A stretch of DNA of 59,682 nucleotides, taken from positions 1 to 59,682 of the forward strand of contig DAOUVJ010000003.1 in assembly GCA_030667705.1 (NCBI GenBank). The letters are read 5' to 3'. This stretch comes from Promethearchaeota archaeon (GTDB lineage: Archaea > Asgardarchaeota > Lokiarchaeia > Sigyniarchaeales > SOKP01). Of the stretch, positions 1,489 to 23,225 are shown piece after piece. The notes below the pieces were generated by a model. It was not told the DNA's origin and did no database searches. It saw only the letters and a list, made by a program, of their open reading frames with translations. Numbering within the stretch: the first letter of the stretch is position 1; the number at the start of each line of letters is the position of its first letter. A program made the translations under genes and the position numbers.

Positions 1489-2199
1489 CAATTTTTTTTT
1501 TCAGTTTTCAATATAGCTACAAATTTATTGATGGGTAACGCTGCTTTTGTCAATAACTTTCTACTGCAGTACGCTCCTGGTGACGAATTTATAATATTTG
1601 TAATCTTTATGCTAGGTGCTTTTGTCTCATTTCCTTTTTGGATAATATACCTCAAACGAATTAAAAACAATAAAAAAGTTCTAGTGATAGGTGGTTTCCT
1701 TCTATCTTTTGCTCTTTTTCCATTAAGCTTTTTCCAAACTGATATCGATTTATTCATCATGCTCTTCATTCTCGGATTAGCTATGGAGAGCATGTGGGCA
1801 TTCTTTTATACGATCATTCAAGCAAGCGTGGTAGATGATTTTGTTGCCAAAACTAGAAATAATCAAAAAGGTATACTTCTTGGAGTATCAACGCTCCTTG
1901 GTCGCCTTGTTGCTACTATTGATGAAATTATATTAGCACTTGTAAATTGGGCCACCGGATTTCCAGAAGGGGTAACAACCTATACTGGGTATATCCAGGA
2001 TAGTATGTACTATCCTGGGTTAACTGATATACTTTCAGGTGCTGATCTGGATTTAGCATTAATGGGGATACGGCTTCTTCTTGGTATTATTCCAAGTGTT
2101 ATTTTAATAGTTGGAACACTGGTCTTTTGGAAGTACTTCCCTCTAACTCAAGATAAAGTATTAGAAAACAAGAGAATATTAGAAGAACTAGGGTTTTAA
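1489..2199 (+). pseudogene. C-terminal half (about TM7-12) of a GPH/MelB-family MFS transporter
   Basis: PFWIIYLKRIKNNKKVLVIGG aligns by eye with PFWTRYSKKVKNNKKVMLISG of 10693..12120. The N-terminal half is absent, and the frame is open from immediately after the kelch TAG. Confidence 0.7.
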
Positions 2200-2204
2200 A
2201 AAAC

Positions 2205-2225
2205 CTTTTTTTTTTTATTTTTTAC
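2205..2225 (+). terminator. Oligo-T tract, archaeal-type terminator
   Basis: cctttttttttttattttttta directly follows the stop at 2199. Similar tracts follow several other genes. Confidence 0.45.
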
Positions 2226-2274
2226 TAAATTTTAAGAGATCTCTGGAATTTTTAAGATCAAGCGAGGAATAAAA

Positions 2275-5022
2275 ATGATTAAAGAACTAGCAAAAGTTTA
2301 TGATCATCGTACAATTGAGAAAGAATTGTATGAATGGTGGGAGAAAGAAGGTTTCTTTCGACCTGAAAAATCTCATGAATTAGGCATTACCGATGAAAAA
2401 TCTGAGAGATATTGCATTACAATTCCGTTACCTAATGTAACAGGACAACTCCATTCAGGTCATGCCCTTGTGATTTCCCTTGAGGATTTAATGACCCGTT
2501 ATGAACGCATGCGACAGAAAGAAACTCTCTATGTCCCGGGCACTGATCATGCTGGAATTGCGACTCAAAGTGTTGTTGTTAGGGAACTATTAAAACAAGG
2601 TATTAATCATAAAGATTTAGGGCGTGAAAAATTCATAGAAAAAGTCTGGGAATGGAAAAATAAATACCACGCCCGAATTACTGAGCAGTCGAAAAGGATG
2701 GGTATCAGCTGCGATTGGAGCCGAGAATATTTTACGCTAGATCCAAATTTATCACGAGCCGTTCGAGAAGCATTCTACAGATTATATCATAAAGGATTAA
2801 TATATCGAGGAGAATATATGGTTAATTGGTGTCCGGGAAGGTGTGTTACCGCTATATCAGACTTAGAGACTGAAGCTATTGATGAACAAGGTCACTTATG
2901 GTATATCAAGTATCCAATTATTACTAAAGCTTGGAAGGGCTCCCAACATCCTTGGGCGAGTGGTAAATGGGCAGAAGGTGTTACAGATTTTATTATTGTT
3001 GCTACCACAAGACCCGAGACGCTATTAGGTGATTCTGCAGTAGCTACAATTAAATCCCATCCTAAATATGCTAAATATATTGGTAAACAAGCAGTTATTC
3101 CAGCTGTCGGTCGTTCCGTCCCAATAATTGCCGATCCATATGTGGATCCCGAATTTGGGACTGGAGCTTTAAAAATAACACCCGCTCATGATCCTAATGA
3201 TTTCGAAATTGGTAAAAAGCATAATTTAGAATTCATAAAAATCTTTAATGAAAAAGCTCAGATTCTCCCGGGGTTTGTTGAAGCTTATACAGGCCTAGAT
3301 CGATTAGAGTGTCGGAAAATAATCATAAAAGATCTTGAAAAAGAAGGATTAATAACTGATATCGAACCTTACGATCATGCTGAACCACATTGTCAACGAT
3401 GTCAGGCAACCATAGAGCCACGAGTTTCTATTCAATGGTTTGTGAAAACAAAGCCTCTCGCGGGACCAGCAATGGAAAAAGTTCGGAATGGTGAGACAAT
3501 TATAATCCCTGAAAGAGAAGAACGTCGTTTTTTCCAATGGATGGAAAATATACACGATTGGTGTATATCTCGTCAGCTTTGGTGGGGTCACAGGATTCCG
3601 GTTTGGTATTGTGATGAATGTGGCGAAGAAATTTGTCCCGAACCTGATGTGGAAACGGTTTCAATTTGTCCTAAATGTAATAGTTCTAGAGTTCATCAAG
3701 ATGAAGATGTGTTAGATACTTGGTTCTCAAGTGGTATATGGCCTTTTTCAACCTTGGGGTGGCCTAATACCGATCATCCTGATTATAAACGCTTCTATCC
3801 AACCGACGCTAGAGAAACTGGTTATGATATTCTCTTTTTTTGGGTTGCAAGAGAACTCATGATGGGAATCGAGCTAACAGGAAAAACGCCATACCATACT
3901 GTTTATTTACATGGTATGATTCGAGACGAAAATGGAAAGAAGATCAGTAAAAGTATGGAAAATATCGATCAATATGATCCTCTAGTAATTATAAAGGATT
4001 ATGGAGCAGACTCCCTCCGGTATGTAAACATATCAACTAGTGTTCCGGGATTAGATACTAATTTAGATCCCAAAAATATTGATGTTGCTCATAAATACTG
4101 TAATAAAATATGGCAAGCTTCTCGTTATGTATTGAATAACATTGATCCTGACGAAATAATTTATCGAATTGATGAAATTGAGCTAGAAAAATTAAATTTC
4201 CCTGATAAATGGATACTTTCCAGGCTAAACTCGCTGATTCGAGATGTACAAATTCACATGGATAATTTTGAATACTTACAAATGACTAGAATTATTAAGT
4301 CATTTTTCTGGAGCGAATTTTGTGATTGGTATATTGAAATGAGCAAAATTTTTCTCTATGATGATGGTTATTCTGATAAACACATTCAAAAAGCAATACT
4401 ATTACACGTATTAGATACTTTCTATAGGTTATTGCATCCTGTCATGCCTTTTATCACTGAAAAATTATGGCAAGCTCTTCCAAGTAATATAAAAGAGGTG
4501 CCCACGATAATGTATGCTCAATGGCCTAAGGTTAATGAATCATTCATTGACTCAAAATTAGAAAAAAGTTTCTTGTTAATGTCCGATTTTGTCCGAGAAG
4601 TGAGACGAGTTAAGCATGATTTTGGAATCCCGTTAAAAACACTAGTACCACTACAAATTGAGACGAATAATAAAGAATTATTTGAAATCTGCAAAAACGA
4701 ATTGGTTAAGATGGCATTCATAGACGAGGAAAAATTTATAATCGATGAAAAAATCGTTCCACCTCCTCAATCAGCACGAATCGTGCTCAGTGGAATACCT
4801 GCGTTTATTCCTCTTTCTGGAATGATTGATATTGAAAAGGAAAAAATAAGAATTCAAACTTCTATTGAAAAAGCTAAACTTGAGAAATCCAAAATAGAGA
4901 AAAAATTGCTAAGTCAATTTTCAGAGCGAGCTCCAGAAGAGTTGGTTGAGAGAGAAAGACAGAAACTTGGAGAATTGCAGTTTAAAATTGATCAGTTCGA
5001 AGACCAATTGAAGATTTTATAA
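2275..5022 (+). CDS. valS: Valine--tRNA ligase (bacterial/eukaryotic type with C-terminal coiled coil)
   Basis: PNVTGQLHSGH (HIGH), GTDHAGIATQ, ATTRPETLLGD, GTGALKITPAHD, DWCISRQLWWGHRIP, KISKS (KMSKS), FCDWYIE and a C-terminal coiled-coil arm. Confidence 0.97.
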   Translation: MIKELAKVYDHRTIEKELYEWWEKEGFFRPEKSHELGITDEKSERYCITIPLPNVTGQLHSGHALVISLEDLMTRYERMRQKETLYVPGTDHAGIATQSVVVRELLKQGINHKDLGREKFIEKVWEWKNKYHARITEQSKRMGISCDWSREYFTLDPNLSRAVREAFYRLYHKGLIYRGEYMVNWCPGRCVTAISDLETEAIDEQGHLWYIKYPIITKAWKGSQHPWASGKWAEGVTDFIIVATTRPETLLGDSAVATIKSHPKYAKYIGKQAVIPAVGRSVPIIADPYVDPEFGTGALKITPAHDPNDFEIGKKHNLEFIKIFNEKAQILPGFVEAYTGLDRLECRKIIIKDLEKEGLITDIEPYDHAEPHCQRCQATIEPRVSIQWFVKTKPLAGPAMEKVRNGETIIIPEREERRFFQWMENIHDWCISRQLWWGHRIPVWYCDECGEEICPEPDVETVSICPKCNSSRVHQDEDVLDTWFSSGIWPFSTLGWPNTDHPDYKRFYPTDARETGYDILFFWVARELMMGIELTGKTPYHTVYLHGMIRDENGKKISKSMENIDQYDPLVIIKDYGADSLRYVNISTSVPGLDTNLDPKNIDVAHKYCNKIWQASRYVLNNIDPDEIIYRIDEIELEKLNFPDKWILSRLNSLIRDVQIHMDNFEYLQMTRIIKSFFWSEFCDWYIEMSKIFLYDDGYSDKHIQKAILLHVLDTFYRLLHPVMPFITEKLWQALPSNIKEVPTIMYAQWPKVNESFIDSKLEKSFLLMSDFVREVRRVKHDFGIPLKTLVPLQIETNNKELFEICKNELVKMAFIDEEKFIIDEKIVPPPQSARIVLSGIPAFIPLSGMIDIEKEKIRIQTSIEKAKLEKSKIEKKLLSQFSERAPEELVERERQKLGELQFKIDQFEDQLKIL

Positions 5023-5040
5023 ATCCTTCTTTTATTTCTT

Positions 5041-5952
5041 TTAATAGAACGGTAGATCTTTAATATTTGGTAGATCAATTTGGGGAGCAAATTTTTTAAT
5101 GTATTCAATCGATTTTAATGCTTCACTTCTTGGTAGTTCAAAAACTACAGGACCTGAAAAATCTCTCTGGTGAAGTAAGTTTAAAAATTCTGGTGGAAAG
5201 TTCTTCCCCGTACCTAAAGCACCGTGATCAATAAGTCCTTTTTCAGAATAGTCTTGTAGATGGATTTCACCTGTGATATCTAAATACTTTTCTGCAATAT
5301 CAACCAAATCGATTTCTCCCGAGAATCCTCCTAGAACGTGTGCCGTATCAATGCATAATTTCGTACCTAATTTCTCAACCATTTTAATTGTTTTTTCAAA
5401 TGGAAACTTGAGATTTTCGATCGCAATTTTCTTTCTATCGATTCCTGTCTTTTTAATAATTTCTTTTATACTCTGGATTGATAAATCTGCAAACAAATTT
5501 GTTGCAATGGGATAGAAATCGGGATCCATTATAAATTTCATTGCATCAGCAATAAATTCGCCCGTTGCATGTAATACATAGACTTCTATATCATCTTCTA
5601 ATTGAATAAAGGTTTCATACGCATCAACAATCGAGTTTACACTCCCTTCTCGAATGAACTTGTTAGGACTGGCAAGTTCAATGCTTATGAAAGGAAGATG
5701 TGCTGAATAAGTAATGCCATATTTTTGTTTTATGTTTTTTATTTTCTCGATTTCTTCCTCTGTTATTTTAATAGGAAAAAGTTGGAAGGGGTCTAGTACA
5801 ATTTCGCAGTGTTTATATCCCGCTTTAGCAACACCCTCGATTAAATCTGAGAGGCTAAACTGTGCTAATCCCGCCAAGCCCTTTTCTTTTAGGATTTTAT
5901 TTATGACTAGCTCTAAACTTAAAGGAGAGATACCTATCCTATTCAATGGCAT
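5041..5952 (-). CDS. Sugar phosphate isomerase/epimerase (AP endonuclease family 2) TIM-barrel metalloenzyme
   Basis: SAHLP, IAIENL, CIDTAH, IHLQD, DHGALG and VVFE metal-binding motifs. Confidence 0.75.
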   Translation of the reverse strand: MPLNRIGISPLSLELVINKILKEKGLAGLAQFSLSDLIEGVAKAGYKHCEIVLDPFQLFPIKITEEEIEKIKNIKQKYGITYSAHLPFISIELASPNKFIREGSVNSIVDAYETFIQLEDDIEVYVLHATGEFIADAMKFIMDPDFYPIATNLFADLSIQSIKEIIKKTGIDRKKIAIENLKFPFEKTIKMVEKLGTKLCIDTAHVLGGFSGEIDLVDIAEKYLDITGEIHLQDYSEKGLIDHGALGTGKNFPPEFLNLLHQRDFSGPVVFELPRSEALKSIEYIKKFAPQIDLPNIKDLPFY

Positions 5953-6053
5953 GATATAAATTAAAATGAAATCAAGATAAAAAGTTTAATTATGATTACG
6001 CTTAATTTAGAAAGTCATAAAATTTAATTTAAAATAAATTCTTTTTAGTATGC

Positions 6054-7205
6054 ATGATTAGTAATTATGAAAAAATAGCGAAAAAAATGGGCGTTCCTTG
6101 GTCAGAAGAAATGGAGAAGATTTTAAAAGCTCTGTATTCCCCCGAGGAAGCTGAGATTCTCCTCGTCTTCAACGGTCCTTACTTGGATCGTTTTGATGCA
6201 AAAAAAATAGCGAAAAAACTCAAGCGCCCAATTGATGAGGTTGAGTCCTCATTAAAGGAAATGGCGCGCACTCAAAGACTCTTTTCTGCTTCAAAAGGAG
6301 ATGAAACAACGTATTCAATGTTTCCACTACTTCCAGGGCTTTTTGAACTGTATTTCTCTAACTACGAAAGAGCCATGAAAGAAGAAAAAGAAGTTTTAGA
6401 ATTATTCACTAAAGAATATGAAAAATATTACAATCTAGGTCATGTTGTAAACTCGATGAGCTCTTCCTATCCTTTCATGAGGGTGTTTGTGGACGGGAAA
6501 GTCATTAATGATACTGTTGAGAGAGGAAAAGGAACCACTATTGAAGTTGGTCAGGAAGTCGAACAATATAAGAATAAAATATTACATTTCGAACAAGTTA
6601 GAAATTTAGTTGAGAATTCTCGCAGAGTTTCTGTAATGGATTGTGCTTGTAGGACTCACATGAAACTACATAATGATGGTGTTCCCGTAAATGATTATCC
6701 TATCAATGTATGCATGAGCTTTAACGTGTTTGCAGATTATTGCATTGAAAATGGATTTGGAAGAGAGATGTCGAAAGAGGAAACTCTTAAAACCCTGACT
6801 GAAGCAGCTAAAGCAGGTTTAGTTCACACTACTCAAAATATGACAGAAAAGACGACATTTATATGCAACTGTGATCGGGACTGTTGTGTAATGCTACGAG
6901 GAATTCGCCAATTTAATGACCCAAATTTAGTCGCTACATCAAATTTTATACCAGAATATGAGAGAGAAAATTGTATTTCTTGTTTAAAATGTGTAGAACT
7001 CTGTCCTATGAGTATTATAGAAATGGTTGATGATGGAAGCGAAGATCAATTAATCTCAATTAATCTCAATAGATGCATAGGTTGTGGAGTTTGTGCTTTT
7101 AACTGCCCTGAGGAGGCATTGACAATGGTCAAAAAGTATGATAAAGTTCCAGTTGAAAATGCGATGTTGATGATGACAAAATCTATTGAGGGAAGGAAAA
7201 ATTAA
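6054..7205 (+). CDS. Iron-sulfur protein with C-terminal 2x[4Fe-4S] dicluster domain
   Basis: CACR, ICNCDRDCC, CISCLKCVELCP and CIGCGVCAFNCP. The N-terminus is HTH-like. Confidence 0.85.
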   Translation: MISNYEKIAKKMGVPWSEEMEKILKALYSPEEAEILLVFNGPYLDRFDAKKIAKKLKRPIDEVESSLKEMARTQRLFSASKGDETTYSMFPLLPGLFELYFSNYERAMKEEKEVLELFTKEYEKYYNLGHVVNSMSSSYPFMRVFVDGKVINDTVERGKGTTIEVGQEVEQYKNKILHFEQVRNLVENSRRVSVMDCACRTHMKLHNDGVPVNDYPINVCMSFNVFADYCIENGFGREMSKEETLKTLTEAAKAGLVHTTQNMTEKTTFICNCDRDCCVMLRGIRQFNDPNLVATSNFIPEYERENCISCLKCVELCPMSIIEMVDDGSEDQLISINLNRCIGCGVCAFNCPEEALTMVKKYDKVPVENAMLMMTKSIEGRKN

Positions 7206-12301: not shown

Positions 12302-14008
12302 ATGAGTAGTCCTTCGTTTCTTTCTTTCGAACGTGTAAGAAATGCCATAATTGGGCGAAATTTTACATTTCGGACCCCATATGGAGTTCGTTTACTTACA
12401 TATGCCGATTATACAGCTTCTGGACGATCTTTAGAATTTATTGAACAATTTTTAATTAAGGTTCAACGAGAGTATGCTAACACGCATACAGAGGATGATA
12501 TTACGGGGCGTCACATGACCAGTCTCTTGCACCATGCTGAAGCTCTCATTAAAAAGGCTTTAAACGCTGAAGATAATTGTAGTGTAATATCAGTTGGAAC
12601 AGGGGCAACGGGAGCGATTTCAAAACTACAAGAAATTTTAGGAGTTAAGATCCATCCCGCCACAAAAAAATTGGCTTTAACACTAGTACCTGAGCTTGAT
12701 AACCTACTAACTCGTTTTAATGAGCGAAAACCCGTCGTGTTTATTGGTCCCTATGAACATCATTCAAACGATTTAATGTGGAGAGAAGCTTTAGTTGACG
12801 TAATAACAATACAGTTAACACATGAAGGATATTTTGACTTAGAAGATCTAGAATTGAAAGTCAGTAATCCTAAATTTAAAGATCGATTAAAAATAGGAAC
12901 ATTTTCAGCGGCATCGAATGTGACGGGTATTAAATCTCCAATTTATGAAATTGCACGGATCATGCATGAGTATAATGGTATTGCGTGTTTTGATTATGCT
13001 GCAAGTGCTCCTTATGTAAAAATTGATATGAATAAGGATGCTGAGTCCTATTTTGATGCAATCTATTTATCACCGCATAAATTTGTTGGTGGACCCGGGT
13101 CAAGTGGGATTTTAGTCTTTAACAATAACTTATATGACACCAATATAGCTCCAACTTGTCCCAGTGGTGGAACCGTTAAATTTGTTAGTCCAAAAGTAGC
13201 GGACTTTATAGATGATATTGAATCTCGTGAAAAAGCAGGCACGCCAGGTATATTACAAACAATTAAAGCTTTTTTAGCTATTGATTTAAAAGATGCTATC
13301 GGAATTTCAAAAATTGAAGAAAAAGAATTAGATTATATATCACGAGCCTTAAAAATACTCCAAAAAAATAAAAATATAGAAATATTAGGACCTATTGACC
13401 CACTCAATCGCATTTCGATCGTTTCCTTTAAGATCAAGCATAATGATAAGTACATCCATCCCAAATTAACCACTAATCTTCTCAATGACTTGTTTGGAAT
13501 TCAGAGTAGAGCAGGATGCATGTGTGCCGGTTCATATGGTCACATGCTTCTGAATCTTGAAGAAGAAGTAACCATAAAGATCCGTAAACTAATTAGTCAA
13601 AATATAAAGGGAATTAACCCGGGTTGGTGTAGAGTGAACTTCCATTATTTACATTCAGAATTAGAATTCCAATTTATTTGCGATGCCATTGAGTTTATTG
13701 CTGACCATGGAAAAATATTTCTTTCTGAGTATAGGTTTAATTATCAAACTGGTGAATGGAATCATTGCAAATTCAATAATAAACAAGGAGAAACCATACC
13801 AATCATAAAAAATGTTCTTGAAATGGAGCTTCGGAATTGTTTTGAGGGACCATTGATTGATCGCGAGTTAAAATTCGCAAGTTACATGAAAGAGGCTAAA
13901 AATATTATTAGTTCTCTGAAAGAGCCATCTAATTATGGAAAGTTTAAAAATCCCGTGGCAGAAGCACTTAGATGGTTCAACTTTGTCCACATTGAAAATG
14001 AGATTTGA
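12302..14008 (+). CDS. Class V PLP enzyme, long cysteine desulfurase/selenocysteine lyase-like
   Basis: YADYTASGR, YANTHT, EHHSND, SNVTG, SPHKFVGGPG (PLP Lys), SRAGCMCAG (persulfide Cys). Confidence 0.85.
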   Translation: MSSPSFLSFERVRNAIIGRNFTFRTPYGVRLLTYADYTASGRSLEFIEQFLIKVQREYANTHTEDDITGRHMTSLLHHAEALIKKALNAEDNCSVISVGTGATGAISKLQEILGVKIHPATKKLALTLVPELDNLLTRFNERKPVVFIGPYEHHSNDLMWREALVDVITIQLTHEGYFDLEDLELKVSNPKFKDRLKIGTFSAASNVTGIKSPIYEIARIMHEYNGIACFDYAASAPYVKIDMNKDAESYFDAIYLSPHKFVGGPGSSGILVFNNNLYDTNIAPTCPSGGTVKFVSPKVADFIDDIESREKAGTPGILQTIKAFLAIDLKDAIGISKIEEKELDYISRALKILQKNKNIEILGPIDPLNRISIVSFKIKHNDKYIHPKLTTNLLNDLFGIQSRAGCMCAGSYGHMLLNLEEEVTIKIRKLISQNIKGINPGWCRVNFHYLHSELEFQFICDAIEFIADHGKIFLSEYRFNYQTGEWNHCKFNNKQGETIPIIKNVLEMELRNCFEGPLIDRELKFASYMKEAKNIISSLKEPSNYGKFKNPVAEALRWFNFVHIENEI

Positions 14009-14201
14009 ACTATTTGTATAGGAGCTCATTTCTAACTCAATTTTAAATATTTTAATAAAAAAAGTAATTGATCTTTTCGGTTTCCTTATCTGTGCCATAA
14101 GATTATCACTTATGAATTTGAAAATACTTAAAAAATAAAATAGAAATATCAAATATGATTCTAAATTACTATTGATAATTATATTTTGGAGAATATAATA
14201 A

Positions 14202-15365
14202 ATGAATTCTAGAGAAAGAGTGAATGTGGCTCTCAACCATATGGAACCGGATAAAATTCCAATTGATTTTGGAGGAAATCAATCAAGTATTCATCTTAAA
14301 GCATACAAGAATTTATTAGAATATTTAGAAATAGAAGATAAAAACATTAAATTTGCAGATTTTGTACAACAAATTGCAGATCCATGTGAAACTATTTTGG
14401 AACGATTTAAAATCGATATTCGGTATATCCGTCCGATAGGTGGGATGATAAAGATCAATGAGATAGAACCTCAGTATGAGGGAAAATTCGTGGGTGTGTA
14501 TGATCAATTTGGAGTTTTCTGGGGGAATAATGCAGAAAAAGAAATTGATAATATTCTGTATTATGATCCAGTTATTCATCCTTTAGCTGACTTTAAATCA
14601 GTCCAAGAAATCAATAATTTTGATTGGCCGGATGGTAAAGATAAATCCCCTTTCAATGGTTTGCGTGAGAAAGCGAAGCATCTTTTTGAGACAACCAAGT
14701 ATGCTTTATCAGCACATCCTTCTGGATGTATTTATGAATATACGACCTTTCTTTTTGGATTTACTAAAGTTTTAAGATACCTTAGGACTAAACCAGAATT
14801 AATAATTGCTGCGATGGAAAATTTAACGAAATATTGGATTGATTACAATACAACATTTTTAGATGAAGTAGGAGAATATTTAGATGTCGTTTCCATTAAT
14901 GGAGATCTAGCTGAACAAGCTGGTCCTATAATGAATTTGAATATTTACACAAAAATGATCAAACCTTTCGAACTAAAGCTTTCACAAAAAGTACATGAGT
15001 TAGCTAGTGTAAAAATCAACTATCATTGTTGTGGCTCGATTCCCTTATTTATTCCTCATTTCGCAGAAATTGGATATGATGCGATAAATCCCGTTCAAAT
15101 CTCTGCATTTGATATGGAACCATGTTCTTTAAAAGAGCGTTTTGGGAAGAAAATCACATTTTGGGGAGGATTATGTAATAACCAAAAAACTCTACCATTT
15201 GGTACCCCAAAACAAATAAGAGAAGAAGTGAGGAAAAATTTTGATTGTTTGATGTCAGGTGGGGGGTATATTGCCTCAAGCATTCATAATATCACTGCGG
15301 AAGTCCCTCCTGAAAATATTGTAGCAATGTTCGATGCGGCAAATGAATTTAGATCTTATAAATAA
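14202..15365 (+). CDS. Uroporphyrinogen decarboxylase / MtaA-CmuA methyltransferase family
   Basis: MNSRERV..AL.H.EPDK.P, YHCCG, INPVQ, TFWGG, HNI..EVPPENIVAM. Confidence 0.85.
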   Translation: MNSRERVNVALNHMEPDKIPIDFGGNQSSIHLKAYKNLLEYLEIEDKNIKFADFVQQIADPCETILERFKIDIRYIRPIGGMIKINEIEPQYEGKFVGVYDQFGVFWGNNAEKEIDNILYYDPVIHPLADFKSVQEINNFDWPDGKDKSPFNGLREKAKHLFETTKYALSAHPSGCIYEYTTFLFGFTKVLRYLRTKPELIIAAMENLTKYWIDYNTTFLDEVGEYLDVVSINGDLAEQAGPIMNLNIYTKMIKPFELKLSQKVHELASVKINYHCCGSIPLFIPHFAEIGYDAINPVQISAFDMEPCSLKERFGKKITFWGGLCNNQKTLPFGTPKQIREEVRKNFDCLMSGGGYIASSIHNITAEVPPENIVAMFDAANEFRSYK

Positions 15366-15428
15366 GATCTTTTTAAATCAATACAATATTTTTCTACTTG
15401 TTTTTAATCTCTTCAAGATGTGTAGATA

Positions 15429-16295
15429 ATGAATTTCAGAATTTTCGATTGTCATCTTCATACCTATGGTACATTTCTAGGACGAAACAAGGATCTCATA
15501 ACTTATTTAGACGAGAATAATATAGAAAAAGCAGTTCTTACAACGATTAATCGAGCCGCTAAATCTAAAATATTCAATACAAATCCAGAGGAAAGAGAGA
15601 AAGATGGGCAAGAAAAAACAAATATCAATCAAGCTTTTGAAAATATGAGAAAATTAATGCCCAAATATCAATTGGATCATCAAGATGTTATAAGTATCTC
15701 AAATTTAGATCCTGAAAGATTTGTTAAGTTCTTTTGGTTCAATCCTAAATTTGATATGGATAAAGAAGATAAAAACTATAGAATATTAGAAGATCATTTT
15801 AAAAAAGGATTTTGTGGAGTTAAAATCCATTCGGGGATTAATCTCATTAAAATTCCTAGAGATATTAAAAAATTAGTTTCTTTCATGCAAGATTTTGATA
15901 AGCGTTTCCCTCTCTTCATTCATTCAACTCCAAAAACGTCCTATTTCGGAGGGGTTAGCTGCAAAGACATTGTAAATTTAGCAAGCAATAATCCAGAACT
16001 AACTATTATTATAGGTCATGCCGCTTTAGCGATGGAATACGCAATTGATCTCGGCTTGGCTTTAAAGAAATTTAAAAATGTTTTTTTTGAAACATCTTGT
16101 TCCATCCCATATGGTATTTTAAGTTTGATAAAAACTATAGGACCTGAAAGAATAATTTTTGGCTCTGATGCACCAGTGACTAATCCACTATCATTAGAAA
16201 TTGATAAGATTACTTGCTTACCCGTATCAAATGATATCAAGCAAGATATTTTTTATAATAACGCAAAAAAGTTATTTAACCGGTTTAACTGTTGA
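15429..16295 (+). CDS. Amidohydrolase family 2 metal-dependent hydrolase
   Basis: DCHLH, GVKIH, FIHS, IIGH, IIFGSDAP. Confidence 0.85.
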   Translation: MNFRIFDCHLHTYGTFLGRNKDLITYLDENNIEKAVLTTINRAAKSKIFNTNPEEREKDGQEKTNINQAFENMRKLMPKYQLDHQDVISISNLDPERFVKFFWFNPKFDMDKEDKNYRILEDHFKKGFCGVKIHSGINLIKIPRDIKKLVSFMQDFDKRFPLFIHSTPKTSYFGGVSCKDIVNLASNNPELTIIIGHAALAMEYAIDLGLALKKFKNVFFETSCSIPYGILSLIKTIGPERIIFGSDAPVTNPLSLEIDKITCLPVSNDIKQDIFYNNAKKLFNRFNC

Positions 16296-16530
16296 GATTG
16301 AATCACAAATCATATAGCTCTATATATATTTAACCAATTAGTTTATCTCACTTTAAATTTTATTTTTAATTCTATAATATGCTATTCATTAATCTTAAAA
16401 TTGCATGATTGAATTAACATGTAAATGTCACCAAAATCCGACAATTATTTTTGATTTAATAATAACTTAAATAAAAGAGATCGTGCAAATATAATTAAGA
16501 ATTAATTTATTAAAATTAAAAGATGATAAC

Positions 16531-17079
16531 GTGAATTATTTAGGGGATAATAACAATTACGATGACGATGGATATTGGGACATCATTGAGGTATCAAAAG
16601 TCGACGACAAAATTATTAAGAGCCTATTAAATCATTTAAAAGATAATATCTCAGAAAATTTTTTCATTTCTTTTGAAAGTTTATTAAAAATAGCACGAAG
16701 AATCCCAGAATTAGAAATAAATAACATTATTAACGAATTAGATGAATCAGACTTGTTTAAACGAGATATTTTCAAATTTATCCTTAGTTACATCAAGGAA
16801 GAAAAAATTGAATATCATTTATTACCTCAATTATTCAATCCTGATTTCATAATACGTGCGAATATTATAATGAAAATTAAAGAGTATGACGATAAGAAAT
16901 ATATTAAATTTCTAATCCCCTTACTTGATGATCCAGATGATTCAGTACGCTGGAGCGTCATTAATTACTTAAGCATGCATAAAGATGACGAAATAATTTA
17001 CAAGAATCTTAAAAACCACATGAATTATGAATTAAATCCGATAATTCTTGAAAATTTAATTAGCCTTTTTGAAGAATAA
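16531..17079 (+). CDS. HEAT-repeat protein
   Basis: GTG start. QLFNPDFIIRANII and PLLDDPDDSVRWSVINYL are HEAT/PBS-like repeats. Confidence 0.72.
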   Translation: MNYLGDNNNYDDDGYWDIIEVSKVDDKIIKSLLNHLKDNISENFFISFESLLKIARRIPELEINNIINELDESDLFKRDIFKFILSYIKEEKIEYHLLPQLFNPDFIIRANIIMKIKEYDDKKYIKFLIPLLDDPDDSVRWSVINYLSMHKDDEIIYKNLKNHMNYELNPIILENLISLFEE

Positions 17080-17166
17080 AAGATTATTTTCAATCTTCTT
17101 TATAAAACTTACACAGGAAGTATTATATTTCCTAAATATGTCGAAGTTTGTGAACTGACCTGTTAT

Positions 17167-17280
17167 ATGGTCGAAATTCCTTTTAATAACCTCTGGGGTG
17201 GATTGATTAACGGTGCTGTTTATGGTGTATTAGGATCGATGGGATATTTAGGTATTCGTTCGATATGGAGAAAGAAATGA
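17167..17280 (+). CDS. Unannotated 37-aa single-pass membrane microprotein with glycine zipper
   Basis: ATG at 17167 to TGA at 17278-80 gives MVEIPFNNLWGGLINGAVYGVLGSMGYLGIRSIWRKK. It has GxxxGxxxG spacing and a basic tail, and is G-richer than the flanking intergenic DNA. It is too short for the supplied ORF track. Confidence 0.55.
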   Translation: MVEIPFNNLWGGLINGAVYGVLGSMGYLGIRSIWRKK

Positions 17281-17415
17281 AAAAATTAAATGTCGATAAA
17301 TTATCTATTTTTTAGTAAGAAAAGAAAACAATTAAAAAAGAAATCTTAGATTAATAACATGTATATCATGTTAAAGTGACTTTCAAGTCATATTTCTGAT
17401 ATTTCAGTCGAGGTA

Positions 17416-17423
17416 TTTATAAA
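17416..17423 (+). promoter_or_regulatory. TATA-box-like element upstream of the small GTPase
   Basis: TTTATAAA ends 20 nt before the GTG at 17444. Confidence 0.35.
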
Positions 17424-17443
17424 TTTTTAATGGGTGTTCAATT

Positions 17444-17971
17444 GTGTCTAATTATGATTTTACATTTAAGGTTCTTTTGTTAGGGGATGCTAGCGTCGGT
17501 AAGACCAGTTTTACCAAGAGATACTGCTATAATATCTTCAATCCTTCTGAAAGGTTGACAATCGGGGTAGATTTTCATGTAAAAACAATTGATTTACACG
17601 GAAGGAAAATAAAACTCCAAATCTGGGATATTGGAGGTGAAGAACGATTTAGGTTCCTACTTCCAACATATTGTCTCGGAGCAAATGCTGCTTTTTTGTT
17701 ATATGACATTACTCGCCCACAAACTCTAGATAATATAAGCGAATGGACAAATATTGTCCGTCAAAAGGGAGGACCCGTTCCAATCATGTTAATTGGCTCG
17801 AAAATAGATCTTGAACCGTCTCAAAGAAACATACCTCGAGAATATGGAATTCAAATTGCTGAAAAACACAGCATGAATTCCTTTGGTGAAATTTCCAGTA
17901 AAACGGGACAAAATGTAACAAAAACTTTTGAAGTTCTCACTGAACTTACATTAGAAATGATGGAAAAATAG
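17444..17971 (+). CDS. Rab-like small GTPase (eukaryotic signature protein)
   Basis: G1 GDASVGKT, TIGVDF, KLQIWDIGGEERF, YCLGA, LLYDIT, G4 SKID, G5 SSKT. Confidence 0.95.
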   Translation: MSNYDFTFKVLLLGDASVGKTSFTKRYCYNIFNPSERLTIGVDFHVKTIDLHGRKIKLQIWDIGGEERFRFLLPTYCLGANAAFLLYDITRPQTLDNISEWTNIVRQKGGPVPIMLIGSKIDLEPSQRNIPREYGIQIAEKHSMNSFGEISSKTGQNVTKTFEVLTELTLEMMEK

Positions 17972-17981
17972 GTGTGTATAA

Positions 17982-18941
17982 ATGGAAGAAAGTGAATTTT
18001 TAGCTATCAGTTCTTTGTTTGACACAATTGGTGTCATCGAAAAAGGGATTGAAAGAATCTATCATTATCTTCTAAAAAACAAACGTATAGATAACCTGAA
18101 AGAAGTATCATCTAATTTTGGATTAACGTTAAAAAGAGGTTATAAAGTTTGTTCAATGTTAAATGAATTAGAGTTAGTTCAAATTTACGATCGTCCAATG
18201 AAAATCCACCTCTCTACACCTGTGCTTCCTCTGTGGCAAAAAATAGTAAATAATAGGATTGAGGAATTATCTCATCAATTTCAAGAAAAAAAGGAGAGAG
18301 CGGAATTTGCTTTAGAAGAATTTCTTAAATCATATAATATAAGGGAGGATTCAACCCAGGAGTTCGTTGAATTTGTCAATTATGACCTCAATAATTTTGC
18401 TGAAACATATTCTGCTTTTTTAGCAGAAAAATCATGTCAAATTGCACTAGGTATAAGATATGATAATGACTTGATATCTTTAGTTAAACAGAAAGGCATT
18501 GAAGGCATCCCGATAGAAATTAACTCATCCATTCGTAATGGAATACTAAAAATCAAGGAAAATCTTAAATCTTTAGATATGCGCGTTATATTCAATGCGG
18601 AAATAGTTAAAGATCTATTATTGAGTAAAGAATTTGAAACTTTATCAAAATATTTTGAACAATTTGATTTAATATTCAAAAATATAGATATTCATGTTAC
18701 TCCTGATGATTTCAGCAATTTCATGCTTACTGACAGGGAACTGATTCAACCTAGTTTCGATCCCTCTAATAAATTGATTGGTTCTTATCTCTCAAGGAAT
18801 AGTACGATATATAAGATATTTGATGATAAATTTAATGAGCTATTTGAAAATGGAATAAAAATAAAACAATTCTTGAAGGAACAAGATATCAAAATCAGAG
18901 ATCTGAATCAGGCTCAACTCTTTGTATTGTGTATTCTATGA
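17982..18941 (+). CDS. TrmB-like transcriptional regulator (N-terminal winged HTH, coiled coil, C-terminal effector domain)
   Basis: RIYHYLL...LKEVSSNFGLTLKRGYKVCSMLNELELV...RPMKI follows the TrmB wHTH pattern and precedes a helical coiled region. It starts 10 nt after the GTPase stop. Confidence 0.6.
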   Translation: MEESEFLAISSLFDTIGVIEKGIERIYHYLLKNKRIDNLKEVSSNFGLTLKRGYKVCSMLNELELVQIYDRPMKIHLSTPVLPLWQKIVNNRIEELSHQFQEKKERAEFALEEFLKSYNIREDSTQEFVEFVNYDLNNFAETYSAFLAEKSCQIALGIRYDNDLISLVKQKGIEGIPIEINSSIRNGILKIKENLKSLDMRVIFNAEIVKDLLLSKEFETLSKYFEQFDLIFKNIDIHVTPDDFSNFMLTDRELIQPSFDPSNKLIGSYLSRNSTIYKIFDDKFNELFENGIKIKQFLKEQDIKIRDLNQAQLFVLCIL

Positions 18942-18965
18942 AAAAAAAAAGAGAATTGTGAAATT

Positions 18966-20513
18966 TTAGGTGTTTTCAGGTTTTTGTTGTCTTAATAAAG
19001 CTTTTCTAAATTTTTCCAATTGTTGGCGCGGAGTAACAGTCAGGCGTACATAAGGTTTTAACTTCTTTTTAATACCAAACAAGTATTTAGCGATATCTTT
19101 TAACTTTTCTGTGTCATATCGCATCATCATGGTAATTGTTTCCATTTGAGGAGAACCTCCTCCATGAATACCAGCTACTTGCATTAATCCGCCTAACTCA
19201 CTTACAGCAAGGGTCTCTATACCTTTAAAGCATTTATATATGTTTTCGGTTTTTACTCTCGGGTTTCTTTTCAAATATTTCATTGCAAGTTCTCCTACTT
19301 CTTCGTTGAAAAAAGAACCTTCATAGGGTAAAGTTGCTATAAGACCTCCAGATAGATCGGCTAATATTTTATATTCTTCGTAAATCATTTCTCCTGCTAG
19401 TCTTCTTCCTGCATTAGTTAATATCTCATCCGGCACTTGTGTTCCTGAAGGTGCTTTTTCAGAATGCTTTGCACTTGATTCTCCTGCAGCAAAAACTAAT
19501 TCTGCTAAACCTATTAAATGAGAAATTTTATCCTGAGCATGACTCGTTTTTTCTATTCCATTATATTCTGCAACTAAAGCAGAAGCACTTGCAATTACTT
19601 CAGATGTGGCAGGTTTACAACCAGTGTAACTATGTCTATGATAATGAGCAAACATCAATGCAAGAAATCCAGCATAAGGAGTTTCTCGAGGGTTTCCGTG
19701 ACCATTCATGAATATTCTCTCATTTGGCACGAACACATCATCAAAAATTATAAAAGTTTCACAATCTCCTAATTTTGATGTCGGAATATCGAATACCTTA
19801 CTTTCTTTTACCCACGCGGGTCTAGTTAGGAGCTTAACCCCCTCCCAATCAGCTGGTAAAGCAAAAGCAACAGCATAGTCTTTATCATCTGGGCTCATGT
19901 ATCGACCCGGAACCACAATTATTTCATCAGCATATGCAGTATTCGTAATATTGATTTTACAACCTCTCACAATTATTCCATCTTCTTTAGTTTCTATTAC
20001 GCGAAGATATTGATCGGGATCCTCTTGTTGAAAAGGTCTTTTGAGTCGGTCTCCTTTAGGATCAGTTTGCGCACAACTGGCAACAAAATCTTTCTCCTGA
20101 AACATTTCCATGTATTTTAAAAATCTTTGATAGTACTCCGTGTGTAATGCTTGATCCATTTCGTAGGTAATAACTGAGAGAGCATTTAATGCATCAATGC
20201 CCATGCATCTCTGAATGCAACCTCCTACTCGATGACATAATCTGCGAGTCATGAGTTGCTTTTTGAGCAAATCTTCTTCACTTTGATGAATGTTAGTAAA
20301 TCGATTTATTCTATTACCCGTGATATGGCTTTTAGTGACGCATAAATCTTCCCATTCAGGATCGTGCGCTTTATCAAAAGTCTCTTTTATGATAAACATG
20401 CCACCCTTCAACCGAGGATCGGTACGATCGACTTTTTCATCACCAATATAGATGTTTGGTTTCATTTTTTTTAGATCTTCAACATATTGTTCGAATGTTC
20501 TCATATATATCAT
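18966..20513 (-). CDS. 4-hydroxybutyryl-CoA dehydratase / HpaB family FAD-[4Fe-4S] protein (divergent paralogue 1)
   Basis: INRFT, GGCIQRCMG, QTDPKGDR, FDDVFVP, HRHSYTGCK, HGGGSP. Confidence 0.88.
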   Translation of the reverse strand: MIYMRTFEQYVEDLKKMKPNIYIGDEKVDRTDPRLKGGMFIIKETFDKAHDPEWEDLCVTKSHITGNRINRFTNIHQSEEDLLKKQLMTRRLCHRVGGCIQRCMGIDALNALSVITYEMDQALHTEYYQRFLKYMEMFQEKDFVASCAQTDPKGDRLKRPFQQEDPDQYLRVIETKEDGIIVRGCKINITNTAYADEIIVVPGRYMSPDDKDYAVAFALPADWEGVKLLTRPAWVKESKVFDIPTSKLGDCETFIIFDDVFVPNERIFMNGHGNPRETPYAGFLALMFAHYHRHSYTGCKPATSEVIASASALVAEYNGIEKTSHAQDKISHLIGLAELVFAAGESSAKHSEKAPSGTQVPDEILTNAGRRLAGEMIYEEYKILADLSGGLIATLPYEGSFFNEEVGELAMKYLKRNPRVKTENIYKCFKGIETLAVSELGGLMQVAGIHGGGSPQMETITMMMRYDTEKLKDIAKYLFGIKKKLKPYVRLTVTPRQQLEKFRKALLRQQKPENT

Positions 20514-20696
20514 TCCACTTTATTTTATATAGTAAATTGTTTATGAAAATAAATTCCCATTTATTAATTTTCTAATTTTTCATTGTTTTTTTTTTAATTA
20601 GAAAAATAATAACATTTATAATAGATTTTGATGAAGTAATACAATCATTAATCAAAAAATAAATTTACCTAAAAAGTTATTAATAGCTGAACGGAA

Positions 20697-23225
20697 ATGT
20701 CTACAGAAATTAGTGTTCCTAGAATTTTTTTTTATTATCTTAAAGAAAGAATAAAACACCCGTTTTCTTTTAAGAAGAAACGATGGAGTTTTTACTCTGA
20801 ACCGGCTTTAAATCTAGGTCTTACAGACCATCCACTCGATAACTTTGCAGATCCACCGTTTGACGTATTCACTTTCTTCAAGAAGTTTTTAAGCAAAAAG
20901 GCGTATAGTATCCGAGAAATAACGTTAAAGGAGAGGATGGAAAACACATTTATATTCAGTTGTAAAGCATATAATATATATTTAAGAAAAGAAGTTCCTG
21001 AGGAATTCGCAGAGGAATACCCTTTACCCCAATTAGGAAATAAACCTACAATATTTAATTTAGCAATTGATTTTATTAGAGATGGTATTTATCGAGTTCG
21101 ATGTAAGAAAGATGGAGACATTCCTGAACATTGTACACCAATGATTTATCAAGATATCATTGATGATAAATTGATAACGGAATTTGAAGATAGAAAAGAA
21201 TATTTTTTAATCAAAACGGAATTAATATCACTTAGAATTTATAAAGCGTCGTTTCGAATAGAAATTTTTGATAACTTTGGAAATTTAATTACAGAATCAA
21301 GTGGTTTGTCAAAAAACGAATTTATTGGATCACTTGATTCATTTCCTTTAGGATTTGTATATTCTAAAAAAAAAAAGAGAATGTATGGAGTTGAAACCTT
21401 TGTATTATATCCGGGGGAGTGTATATATGGATTCGGTGAAAAATTTGGACCGCTTAATAAGATGGGTAAGACAATTACAATATGGCACACTGATGGTCTT
21501 GGAAATTCCACAGGTCGTACATATAAAAATATTCCTTTTTTTATGAGTACTCGTGGTTATGGTGTTTTTGTAAATGAAATTAAACCAAGTACATTTTGGG
21601 TAGGAACGAGAGAAACTACTAAATTAATGATTGGAATAGAAGGAGATTTAATTGATTATTATTTTTTTTATGGTCCTACATTAAAAAAAATACTCGAGAA
21701 ATATACTAATTTAACAGGTAAAGCAGAAGTTCCACCAAAATGGTCATTCGGGATGTGGATGTCGAGACTAAGCTACCGAACTCAAGAGGAGGTCTTAGAA
21801 GTTGCTAAAAAGTTGAGAGATATGAGATATCCTAGTGATGTAATTCATATTGATACAGGGTGGTTTGAAGAAGAATGGATTTGCGATTGGAAATTTAATA
21901 ATAAAAAATTTCCTGACCCAAAAGGTATGATGGATGAGTTAAAAGAAATGGGCTTTAAAGTATCCTTGTGGCAGACCCCTTATATCTCAAAAGCAGGAAA
22001 AAACCAATATAAGGAAGCAAAAAGATTAGGAATTTTAGCCAAAAATCATGGACCATTTTCTTTTCTTTTTGAGCCCGCTTTTGCGTTGGACTTTTCAAAT
22101 CCTGATCTTATAAAATGGTATCAAAATAAACTTAGAAATTTATTTAAATTAGGAGCTGCCGTGATAAAAACTGATTTTGGTGAAGCAATAGAACCACACC
22201 AAAAATTTTTAAAATATAATGGTAGAGAAATGCATAATTTATTTCCATTATTATATCAAAAGGCAGCATTTGAGGTTACAAAAGAATTCTACGGAAAAGG
22301 GATTATATGGGCAAGAAGTGGTTATAGTGGTTCTCAGCGTTATCCTGTACATTGGTCAGGAGATTCTTCAAGTAGTATAGAAACTATGTTGAGTGTTTTA
22401 CGTGGTGGTCTTAGTCTGGGTCTCTCAGGCTTTACTTATTGGAGTCAAGATGTGGGAGGATTTATTTTGAGTCCTAATGATGAAACCTATATTCGTTGGA
22501 CTCAATTTAGCATTTTTAATTCTCATATCAGATTTCATGGGAACCCTCCTCGATATCGAGAACCATGGAATTTTTCAGAAAAAACTCAAAAAATTGTAAG
22601 AGAAATGTTAAATTTAAGATATCGATTAATACCTTATATTTATACTGAATCACATATTGCTTCTGAACACGGTTTTCCCATTTTACGTCCATTGGTTCTT
22701 GAATTTAATGACGATCCGAATACATTTAATATTGAGGATGAATTCCTGTGTGGAAGAAATTTACTCATAGCACCAATTCTAACAAAATCTAATTCACGAA
22801 TTATTTATTTTCCTTTAGGAGATTGGTATGACTTTTGGACAATGAAAAGATATTGCGGCCCTAAATGGATAAATTATGATTGTGATATCGATAAAGTTCC
22901 TTTCTTTATTAAAGGCGGAACAATTCTGTTTCTTGGACCAATTATGCAGTATGTTGATGAAAAACCACGGAATAAAATTACATTATACATAACACCCATC
23001 GGTGAGAAAGATACATCTGAATGTTTCGTTATAGATGATGAAAAAATAAAGATCAAAGCAACGTTATTAAACCAAGTTATGAATATAAAACTTAGTAAAA
23101 ACATTCCTAAAATTGAGACCTATATTCCAACAAAATGTAAAATTATATCCATAATAATCAATGGTAAGAATACTCCAATTCAGCAGATAAATGATAATTA
23201 CATTAAGGGAGAAATTGAACTTTAG
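20697..23225 (+). CDS. GH31 glycoside hydrolase, YicI-like alpha-xylosidase
   Basis: YGFGE, YKNIPF, IHIDTGW, IKTDFGE (nucleophile), HWSGD, WSQDVGGF, RYRLIPYIY. Confidence 0.92.
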   Translation: MSTEISVPRIFFYYLKERIKHPFSFKKKRWSFYSEPALNLGLTDHPLDNFADPPFDVFTFFKKFLSKKAYSIREITLKERMENTFIFSCKAYNIYLRKEVPEEFAEEYPLPQLGNKPTIFNLAIDFIRDGIYRVRCKKDGDIPEHCTPMIYQDIIDDKLITEFEDRKEYFLIKTELISLRIYKASFRIEIFDNFGNLITESSGLSKNEFIGSLDSFPLGFVYSKKKKRMYGVETFVLYPGECIYGFGEKFGPLNKMGKTITIWHTDGLGNSTGRTYKNIPFFMSTRGYGVFVNEIKPSTFWVGTRETTKLMIGIEGDLIDYYFFYGPTLKKILEKYTNLTGKAEVPPKWSFGMWMSRLSYRTQEEVLEVAKKLRDMRYPSDVIHIDTGWFEEEWICDWKFNNKKFPDPKGMMDELKEMGFKVSLWQTPYISKAGKNQYKEAKRLGILAKNHGPFSFLFEPAFALDFSNPDLIKWYQNKLRNLFKLGAAVIKTDFGEAIEPHQKFLKYNGREMHNLFPLLYQKAAFEVTKEFYGKGIIWARSGYSGSQRYPVHWSGDSSSSIETMLSVLRGGLSLGLSGFTYWSQDVGGFILSPNDETYIRWTQFSIFNSHIRFHGNPPRYREPWNFSEKTQKIVREMLNLRYRLIPYIYTESHIASEHGFPILRPLVLEFNDDPNTFNIEDEFLCGRNLLIAPILTKSNSRIIYFPLGDWYDFWTMKRYCGPKWINYDCDIDKVPFFIKGGTILFLGPIMQYVDEKPRNKITLYITPIGEKDTSECFVIDDEKIKIKATLLNQVMNIKLSKNIPKIETYIPTKCKIISIIINGKNTPIQQINDNYIKGEIEL

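Follow-up and report, generated by a model that had tools for sequence, protein, structure and literature searches.

A Rab-like GTPase gene of Lokiarchaeia and its conserved neighbor, a gene for a predicted TrmB-type protein

Small GTPases of eukaryote-like type number in the dozens in Asgard archaea, nearly none of them has a known partner, and the question raised by the locus described here is whether one of these GTPases has a dedicated one. The locus lies in a stretch of 59,682 nucleotides (nt) from a Promethearchaeota archaeon of the Lokiarchaeia (assembly GCA_030667705.1, contig DAOUVJ010000003.1, positions 1 to 59,682, forward strand), referred to as the window and numbered C197 among the contigs of its genome, which comprises 3.1 Mb on 228 contigs and is an estimated 92.5% complete. 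On the plus strand of the window, four co-oriented open reading frames (ORFs) code for, in this order, a HEAT-repeat protein, a 37-amino-acid (aa) peptide, a Rab-like small GTPase, and a 319-aa protein, P319, with spacings of 87, 163, and 10 nt (Table 1). An initial annotation based on the sequence alone had described these ORFs and spacings correctly and had proposed them as a candidate signaling module of a Rab-like GTPase and a TrmB-like regulator, possibly with a HEAT effector and a microprotein as membrane tether. Here, we find that this Asgard GTPase gains concrete, testable candidate partners, i.e., a fixed, tight neighbor of recognizable fold and a looser second one.

Using P319 as a protein query against 161 genomes of the class and a P319 profile against 400 genomes of the phylum, we obtained matches in 127 of the former and 130 of the latter; in its own genome, P319 is single copy. 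By family (numbered f1 to f7), the protein query matched 110/134 (f1), 1/1 (f2), 13/14 (f3), 0/4 (f4), 1/3 (f5), 1/2 (f6), and 0/2 (f7) genomes, the f5 and f6 matches being weak, and outside f1 to f3 the profile gave five partial matches only (E values of 1e-8 to 1e-5). We examined 50 loci, i.e., the best 30 P319 matches, which are all from one genus (g1) and include the window, and 20 chosen loci, 19 of which are from 18 other genera and one of which is a weak f5 hit. Two loci were uninformative, one (L014) having 12 nt of upstream DNA and the other (L050) being the weak f5 hit on a contig of 3,979 nt. In all 48 informative loci, which represent 19 genera and three families, a GTPase ortholog is encoded directly upstream of P319 on the same strand. 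The distance from the GTPase stop codon to the P319 start codon is 4 nt in 21 of these loci and ≤20 nt in 44; 47 loci stay within 45 nt, and a single locus has 253 nt. In the window, the 10-nt gap reads TAGGTGTGTATAAATG, and the GGTG that the initial annotation had placed in this gap is present and overlaps the GTPase stop codon. The flanking genes vary across genera and the pair is unbroken, also in f3, in which it is intact although P319 identity drops to ~30%.

The HEAT gene is linked to this pair more loosely. Its product matches HEAT_2 in Pfam (E of 4.2e-8; 33.8 bits versus a cut-off of 27.7), and the AlphaFold2 model (predicted local distance difference test score [pLDDT] of 87.2) is an alpha-solenoid of ~10 helices that is all-helical from residue 26, so that the Pfam match and the model both place the protein among HEAT proteins; Foldseek searches with this model returned generic HEAT, alphaRep, and CpcE-F matches only (E of about 0.02) and no specific family. 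HEAT orthologs were found in 112 of the 161 class genomes (E ≤1e-6), 11 of which have a second, weaker match, and the gene is effectively single copy. We paired the HEAT and P319 positions by hand, taking the best match of each per genome and leaving out secondary matches in frames of >1,000 aa along with split pieces and fragments of P319 as well as the paralogs of genome G156 described below. Both genes are present in 107 genomes, on a shared contig in 94 and on different contigs in 13, and in all 94 genomes with a shared contig the HEAT gene lies upstream of P319 on the same strand (within 1.5 kb in 60, at 1.5 to 3 kb in 16, at 3 to 6 kb in 16, and farther away in 2). For family f3, the single-protein HEAT query mostly fails; clustering of ORFs identified a 260- to 269-aa HEAT_2 protein near the pair in four of five f3 loci. 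The gene most commonly found between HEAT and the GTPase codes for a xylose-isomerase-like TIM-barrel protein (10 of 20 loci). The adjacency of the GTPase and P319 genes and the HEAT linkage exceed chance, and the comparison of neighborhoods across Lokiarchaeia that the initial annotation had suggested came out positive for the GTPase and P319 (48/48) and, more loosely, for HEAT (94/94).

The distribution of the three genes points in the same direction. P319 and HEAT are both missing from five genomes of three genera that are 98 to 100% complete, and the best GTPase matches in these genomes have 53 to 60% identity, i.e., the level of paralogs, compared with 71 to 95% for orthologs in f1. Because these near-complete genomes have only paralog-level GTPase matches, all three genes seem to have been lost together. 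Several closed genomes of the order carry both neighbors of the GTPase gene.

What kind of protein is P319? In the window, neither P319 nor the 37-aa ORF matches any Pfam family, even at E ≤10. We aligned 28 P319 orthologs, translated from the window and the fetched loci, and used this alignment as input for AlphaFold2. The resulting model (mean pLDDT of 91.2; predicted template modeling score of 0.60) has a winged helix-turn-helix (wHTH) domain at aa 3-77, a long helix at aa 81-117, and an alpha/beta domain of the phospholipase D (PLD)-like type at aa ~126-295. In a Foldseek search of the PDB, the top eight matches were TrmBL2 chains (E of 3.5e-12 to 7e-11; ~290 to 300 columns; 15% identity), followed by PLD-fold proteins (Zucchini at 1e-5, NucT, and Nuc) and then by 2f5t and MarR-type wHTH proteins; 2f5t, the isolated sugar-binding domain of TrmB, matched with an E of 3e-3 only. 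VIA-align gave Z scores of 11.2 for TrmBL2 (232 aligned), 11.0 for the wHTH protein ST1889 (root mean square deviation of 2.4), 9.6 for NucT, 9.4 for FAM83B, and 8.7 for full-length TrmB (3qph; 220 aligned, chain residues 10-248 of 335). Thus, the model has the TrmB-type domain order of a wHTH, a long dimerization helix, and a PLD-like effector domain, and the single domains also match separately. The match to 3qph stops before what we take to be the sugar-binding part of TrmB, its far C terminus. We regard P319 as a very divergent protein of TrmB/TrmBL2 architecture and as a putative DNA-binding protein. The label of TrmB-like regulator in the initial annotation accordingly fits the predicted fold, which sequence libraries barely detect.

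The residues kept in all 28 orthologs would suit a DNA-binding wHTH and include four of the recognition helix (K51, R52, Y54, and K55) and three of the wing (R71, P72, and M73). The alignment contains no invariant His and no HxK(x)4D motif, and the region corresponding to the HKD motif reads FSNF..TD..LIQPSFDP; the PLD-like domain, in which an invariant His is missing, is therefore no HKD enzyme. PF01978 is carried by all of the nearest named ESM Atlas clusters (scores of 0.90 to 0.91). Close homologs are labeled as from Promethearchaeota or Lokiarchaeota archaea and mostly as "hypothetical protein"; a few Joint Genome Institute records name them "sugar-specific transcriptional regulator TrmB". 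In a Pfam scan of the 28 orthologs, E2F_TDP was touched by five and DUF6879 by six. A search of PDB sequences with the P319 profile gave no TrmB match and, as weak matches, E2F8 (E of 0.058) and the N-terminal domain of Legionella lpg1496 (E of 0.002; motif LIxPS..P.NKL.G.YIS.NKEI). We note that the latter match to this Legionella effector (5btz, 5bty) involves the most conserved C-terminal motif of P319, LIQPSFDPSNKLIG.YISRN..I at residues ~215-278 (window 18624-18815), and that a related uncharacterized protein (5bq9) is also weakly matched by this motif.

The GTPase was assigned to the Ras family by Pfam (E of 2.3e-42), with NCBIfam contributing a generic small_GTP domain only. Its description as Rab-like in the initial annotation is borne out: among 423 matches to PDB sequences at E ≤1e-10, the best 60 belong without exception to Rab, Sec4, or Ypt proteins and are led by Rab10 (5.7e-38), Rab30, Rab3, and Rab8 with E values from 1e-34 down to 6e-38. 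The window protein has the motifs GDASVGKT (G1), Thr39 in switch I, WDIGGE (G3), and SKID (G4) as well as IGVDF, KLQIWD, and YDIT, which we take to be RabF-type motifs. The P-loop Gly and Lys, Thr39, DxxG, the G4 Lys and Asp, and a G5 Ser are invariant in 28 GTPase orthologs, in which G4 reads [SAGTN]KxD. Among the characteristics of Rabs, the GTPase therefore has the nucleotide-binding motifs and its best similarity within the Ras superfamily is to Rabs, and it lacks the catalytic Gln and the prenylation Cys. Specifically, Glu66 replaces the catalytic Gln in 28/28 orthologs (G64, G65, and E66 are invariant), and neither the window protein, which ends with LTLEMMEK, nor the 28 orthologs have a C-terminal Cys motif for prenylation; the sole Cys near the C terminus is the next-to-last residue in the ortholog of locus L045.

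The source genome has 42 small-GTPase matches, and a tblastn search of it gave 41 hits. We built a tree of the 28 P319-linked GTPases and 33 paralogs from this genome, having left out 7 of the 40 non-self hits with <140 residues covered or an internal stop. The linked GTPases and one paralog on contig C99 form a clade with support of 100/97, and the linked GTPases alone can form one group (support of 60/64). These results support that the P319-linked GTPases are orthologs rather than random picks among the 42 matches. The C99 protein is the nearest paralog (56 to 57% identity), and its gene has no TrmB-like neighbor; next to it (locus L051, minus strand, 4654-5205 and 5574-6227) is a gene for an Rce1-like CAAX-type intramembrane protease, with another Ras-family gene at a distance of 2.6 kb. 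DxxGE combined with a non-Asn G4 was observed in 12 of the 41 hits, and 10 of these 12 cluster with the P319-linked clade, the other two not being in the tree; the DxxGE GTPases are a lineage-specific subfamily without the catalytic Gln.

A search of the source genome with PF01978 identified a second TrmB-GTPase cassette, in which a gene for a canonical TrmB protein lies 79 nt upstream of a co-oriented gene for a Ras-family GTPase (Table 1). This TrmB protein has matches in 164 of the 400 phylum genomes at E ≤1e-10. We inspected 21 loci, i.e., that of the source genome and 20 from 19 genomes of families f1, f2, f3, f4, f7, f10, f11, f21, and f26, and found a GTPase gene after the TrmB gene on the same strand in 18 of them, with gaps of -35 to 238 nt. 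These 18 loci span eight families (f1, f3, f4, f7, f10, f11, f21, and f26); of the other three, one is at a contig edge and two are second copies without a GTPase gene. The two cassettes are alike in having adjacent, co-oriented genes for a TrmB-type protein and a small GTPase. They differ in that the second has the reverse gene order, a Pfam-positive TrmB protein, and a GTPase that keeps the catalytic Gln and branches far from the P319-linked clade; moreover, the second cassette occurs in several families and classes of Asgard archaea, whereas the GTPase-P319 pair is confined to one order. With the second arrangement intact in 18 of 21 loci, TrmB-type proteins are thus paired with small GTPases more than once in Asgard archaea, in two unrelated forms whose gene orders are opposite. 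A CofC-like gene is found downstream of the second cassette within family f1.

Table 1. Coordinates of the genes and elements discussed in this study; positions refer to the window unless another locus is given
Feature	Position	Strand	Description
HEAT-repeat protein gene	16531-17079	+	182 aa; GTG start; Pfam HEAT_2
37-aa ORF	17167-17280	+	Open frame within inserted DNA at 17108-17322
Promoter-like and putative ribosome-binding region of the GTPase gene	17410-17443	+	Read from sequence
Rab-like small GTPase gene	17444-17971	+	175 aa; GTG start; Pfam Ras
GTPase/P319 junction	17969-17984	+	TAG stop; GGTG at 17971-17974; ATG of P319 10 nt after the stop
P319 gene	17982-18941	+	319 aa; TrmB/TrmBL2 fold by AlphaFold2 model
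Canonical TrmB gene, second cassette	G000:C110, L060 3609-4472	-	287 aa; PF01978 E of 1.3e-15
Ras-family GTPase gene, second cassette	L060 2957-3529	-	190 aa; E of 4e-43; catalytic Gln present
Amidohydrolase gene	15429-16295		Upstream of the HEAT gene
HpaB-family gene	18966-20513	-	4-hydroxyphenylacetate hydroxylase/4-hydroxybutyryl-CoA dehydratase type; convergent with P319
GH31 glycosidase gene	20697-23225		

Upstream of the GTPase gene, a TATA-like sequence, gaGGTATTTATAAA, is located at 17410-17423, and GGGTG at 17432-17436 lies 7 nt ahead of the GTG start codon. In an alignment of 27 GTPase upstream regions from the same genus, the TATA-like GGTATTTATAAA and GGGTG are kept, which suggests that this promoter-like region functions as promoter and ribosome-binding region of the GTPase gene; therefore, the HEAT gene may be transcribed separately and have its own transcript. 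A palindrome, AATTAAAAA-N5-TTTTTAATT, is kept within the genus in a block of ~30 nt upstream of the GTPase gene. This block, AAAGAATTAAAAAAGACATTTTTAATTATA, contains a 9-bp inverted repeat with a 5-nt spacer and lies 100 to 170 nt upstream of the GTPase start in loci L002-L030; it is degenerate in the window itself (17312-17353) and absent in other genera, and it may act either as a T-rich terminator for HEAT or as an operator specific to the genus.

The start codon of the GTPase gene also seems unusual. Among 46 orthologous loci with an intact 5' end, 21 have no ATG, GTG, or TTG between the upstream in-frame stop codon and the conserved YDYTFK motif (L003-L011, L015, L016, L018, L023-L026, L028, L030, L031, L043, and L048). 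These 21 loci mostly have ATT, and otherwise ATA or ATC, a few nt after GGTG, and three more loci have ATA in place of the ATG of sister genomes. In the window, the start is GTG (17444-17446), and P319 almost always starts with ATG. We take this pattern as a hint that the GTPase gene conserves a weak, near-cognate start codon.

The 37-aa ORF, which had been interpreted as a glycine-zipper microprotein and possible membrane tether, does not belong to the module. The spacer between HEAT and the GTPase is 364 nt in the window versus 158 to 303 nt in 26 loci of the same genus with both genes, none of which has the ORF (0/26), and at this locus the alignment of the window spacer to these relatives is confined to its last ~140 nt. 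Homologs of the peptide (62 to 89% identity) are encoded in 11 genomes of the genus on another contig or 96 kb away, where they are the C-terminal half of open frames of 81 to 161 aa. The complete gene, present in locus L056, codes for an 83-aa protein with two hydrophobic segments, the first of which is missing in the window copy, and two of four relatives have GTA or ATA in place of the codon for the opening Met of the ORF. We therefore rejected the ORF as a module member and regard it as a genome-specific, inserted, 5'-truncated remnant of a gene for a protein with two transmembrane segments. We note that the ORF and the preceding 29 codons (17080-17280) are in frame with HEAT, with only the HEAT TAA codon between them, and that, reading by eye, the 83-aa gene of L056 lies between a gene similar to isocitrate/isopropylmalate dehydrogenase genes and a 196-aa ORF, with a histone-like ORF close by.

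Among the neighboring genes (Table 1), the HpaB-family gene is convergent on P319 in 9 of 20 loci of different genera and in 17 of 30 loci of the same genus, and the amidohydrolase gene recurs in none of 19 compared loci of other genera.

How could the conserved genes function together? The reading that we tentatively prefer is that of a GTPase-coupled DNA-binding switch, in which P319 would be a dimeric TrmB-type DNA-binding protein with its ligand domain given over to the GTPase and the HEAT protein would be a regulator or effector. The core is a two-gene cassette, vertically inherited in one order of Lokiarchaeia, for a soluble Rab-like GTPase followed by P319, with the small HEAT gene upstream as a looser third member. 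As in TrmB and TrmBL2, P319 would dimerize via the long helix and bind DNA via the wHTH, and its PLD-like domain, which has no catalytic His, would receive the GTPase instead of a sugar. The GTP- or GDP-bound state of the GTPase would then set DNA binding by P319 and, through it, transcription or the occupancy of chromatin. Coupled synthesis of the two proteins would follow from the close spacing of their genes (typically 4 to 14 nt, with GGTG at the junction), and the HEAT protein could regulate the GTPase or act as its effector.

Several observations weigh against this switch. The genomes compared are relatives and not independent, so that counts such as 48/48 and 94/94 overstate the number of independent observations. 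Transcription factor genes often lie in the operon that they regulate without the protein contacting the co-encoded proteins, and adjacency therefore does not prove binding. No fused GTPase-P319 protein of >575 aa was found, which is weak evidence. A predicted complex of P319, GTP, Mg, and the GTPase, run without controls, had ipSAE values of 0.11 and 0.21, below the mark of 0.32, and is no argument in either direction on binding. A search of 23 loci gave no operator common to different genera upstream of the GTPase gene: the best inverted 5-mer occurred in 12 of the 23 and did not exceed the shuffles, 200 of which had their 95th percentile at 11 and their maximum at 13. At the sequence level, membership of P319 in the TrmB family is weak: only 4 of the 28 orthologs, and not the window protein, match PF01978, all below the cut-off (best E of 2e-4), and hhalign aligned P319 with the Pfam-positive Asgard TrmB family in the expected register with an E of 0.0045 and a probability of 8% over 141 columns. 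Finally, locus L052 (G156:C298) has two P319 paralogs with 35 to 38% identity and no GTPase gene, and because of these paralogs the P319 fold does not require the GTPase. Each of the two paralog genes is followed by a gene for a permuted papain-like C92 amidase/peptidase (858-1826, 2113-3042, 3401-4384, and 4661-5485); the paralogs touch PF01978 at E of 4e-4 and 7e-3, and genome G156 has an estimated 6% contamination.

The alternative that survives best, which we nevertheless consider doubtful, is an autoregulated operon: P319 would sense a small molecule via its C-terminal domain and control its own operon and perhaps nearby metabolic genes, and the GTPase would be cargo that it does not contact. 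The TrmB fold of P319 is compatible with this alternative, and the Thermococcus TrmB gene lies inside the sugar transport operon under its control. Genes for sugar-type enzymes are also frequent neighbors here, including the GH31 glycosidase gene of the window and the xylose-isomerase-like TIM-barrel gene, which is upstream of the GTPase gene in 10 of 20 loci and directly adjacent in 8 of them, and P319 paralogs without a GTPase precede other genes. However, the metabolic flanking genes differ between genera and the GTPase never does, the match to 3qph ends at chain residue 248 and leaves the presumed sugar-binding end unmatched, and the three genes appear to be lost together. In addition, an unrelated TrmB-GTPase cassette in reverse order across classes is hard to square with arbitrary cargo.

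It is unlikely, in our view, that P319 is instead a regulator or effector of the GTPase, i.e., a GEF (guanine nucleotide exchange factor), a GTPase-activating protein, or a scaffold, and not a transcription factor, in which case the winged-helix and PLD-like domains would bind protein. FAM83 domains, one of which (FAM83B) the PLD-like domain of P319 resembles, are noncatalytic scaffolds, and the tight coupling of the genes would suit a stoichiometric partner. As an analogy, MfpC, a DUF742 protein with a predicted HTH, has been shown by experiment to be a GEF for the GTPase of its own operon (PMC11343762); yet the 25 families listed, out of 42 matched in Pfam by the 28 P319 orthologs, do not include DUF742. 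The Lys, Arg, and Tyr residues that are invariant in the recognition helix, like the invariant Arg-Pro-Met of the wing, are those expected of a DNA-binding TrmB protein, and the entire two-domain arrangement resembles the DNA-binding TrmBL2 and TrmB. That the linkage is only historical, reflecting slow rearrangement in a young clade of genes with unrelated functions, is very improbable: 134 of the 161 class genomes are from one family, and their relatedness is in its favor, but the flanks are repeatedly reshuffled while the pair keeps a gap of 3 to 42 nt in 47 of 48 loci and stays intact at ~30% P319 identity in f3, and the three genes seem to have been lost together in three genera.

Returning to the GTPase-coupled switch, the fixed P319 neighbor and the looser HEAT neighbor make the partner of an Asgard Rab-like GTPase directly testable with two to three recombinant proteins. 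If P319 is truly a DNA-binding regulator, a eukaryotic-signature switch would be tied to archaeal transcription or chromatin, and such a link, if true, bears on the original purpose of the GTPase expansion. A broader idea, which is possible but which we hold with considerable reserve, is that Rab/Ras-like GTPases of Asgard archaea are direct inputs to TrmB-family DNA-binding proteins, that such wiring emerged or was retained on two or more occasions, as the GTPase-P319 pair in one order of Lokiarchaeia and as the canonical TrmB-GTPase cassette in several Asgard classes, and that the first cassette has a dedicated HEAT regulator or effector. If this is so, DNA would serve as the readout for the nucleotide state of a eukaryote-type switch, and part of the large Asgard GTPase expansion would have served gene regulation and not membrane traffic.

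TrmB-family regulators, Asgard Rab-like GTPases, and bacterial small GTPases with HTH operon partners are already known. P319 has the domain order of TrmBL2 and TrmB of Thermococcales (5bpd, 5bpi, 5box, 5bqt; 3qph; 2f5t) and, judged from the alignment to 3qph, may resemble TrmBL2 in having no counterpart of the presumed C-terminal, sugar-binding end of TrmB. Unlike these proteins, to which it is ~15% identical, P319 is found in one order of Lokiarchaeia only and has an obligate GTPase gene as partner; to our knowledge, pairing with a GTPase gene is not a feature of Thermococcales TrmB proteins. The window GTPase has its best matches among eukaryotic Rabs (Rab10, Rab8, Rab3, and Sec4) and shares intact nucleotide-binding motifs with them. 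Unlike them, it has Glu for the catalytic Gln, a G4 motif of the [SAGTN]KxD type, and no C-terminal Cys for prenylation.

For the GTPase-P319 pair itself, full-text searches of the literature gave no published description, with the qualification that supplementary tables of Asgard genome papers could list the neighborhood. The initial suggestion that the arrangement is undescribed has to be qualified in that operons for a bacterial small GTPase and an HTH protein are known (PMC11343762, PMC4316618). In the actinobacterial conservons (CvnA-D/MfpB-E), a small Ras-superfamily GTPase is likewise encoded beside an HTH partner, a DUF742 protein, that acts on the GTPase (PMC11343762, PMC4316618), and MfpC is an HTH-containing DUF742 protein acting on the small GTPase of its own operon (PMC11343762). 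The conservon GTPase is of the MglA type and needs a histidine kinase and a roadblock protein; here, the partner has a predicted TrmB fold and is not a DUF742 protein. The window locus does not contain the four-gene conservon set of histidine kinase, roadblock/MglB, DUF742, and MglA-type GTPase, and no histidine kinase, roadblock, or DUF742 protein was found among the Pfam-scanned genes of the window (12302 to 23225) or 14 representatives of clusters of recurrent neighbors in related loci. Group 3 MglA proteins have a conserved neighbor with a predicted winged-HTH DNA-binding domain that was proposed to be a transcription regulator, according to Wuichet and Sogaard-Andersen 2015 (PMC4316618); this system is bacterial, the partner is a receiver-plus-wHTH protein, and the GTPase is of a different family. 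Lastly, according to Tran et al. 2024 (PMC10933270), genome layout generally gives little guidance, since roadblock, longin, and TRAPPC3 genes as a rule do not share operons with the small GTPase genes of MK-D1; unlike those genes, the P319-linked GTPase gene has a fixed neighbor.

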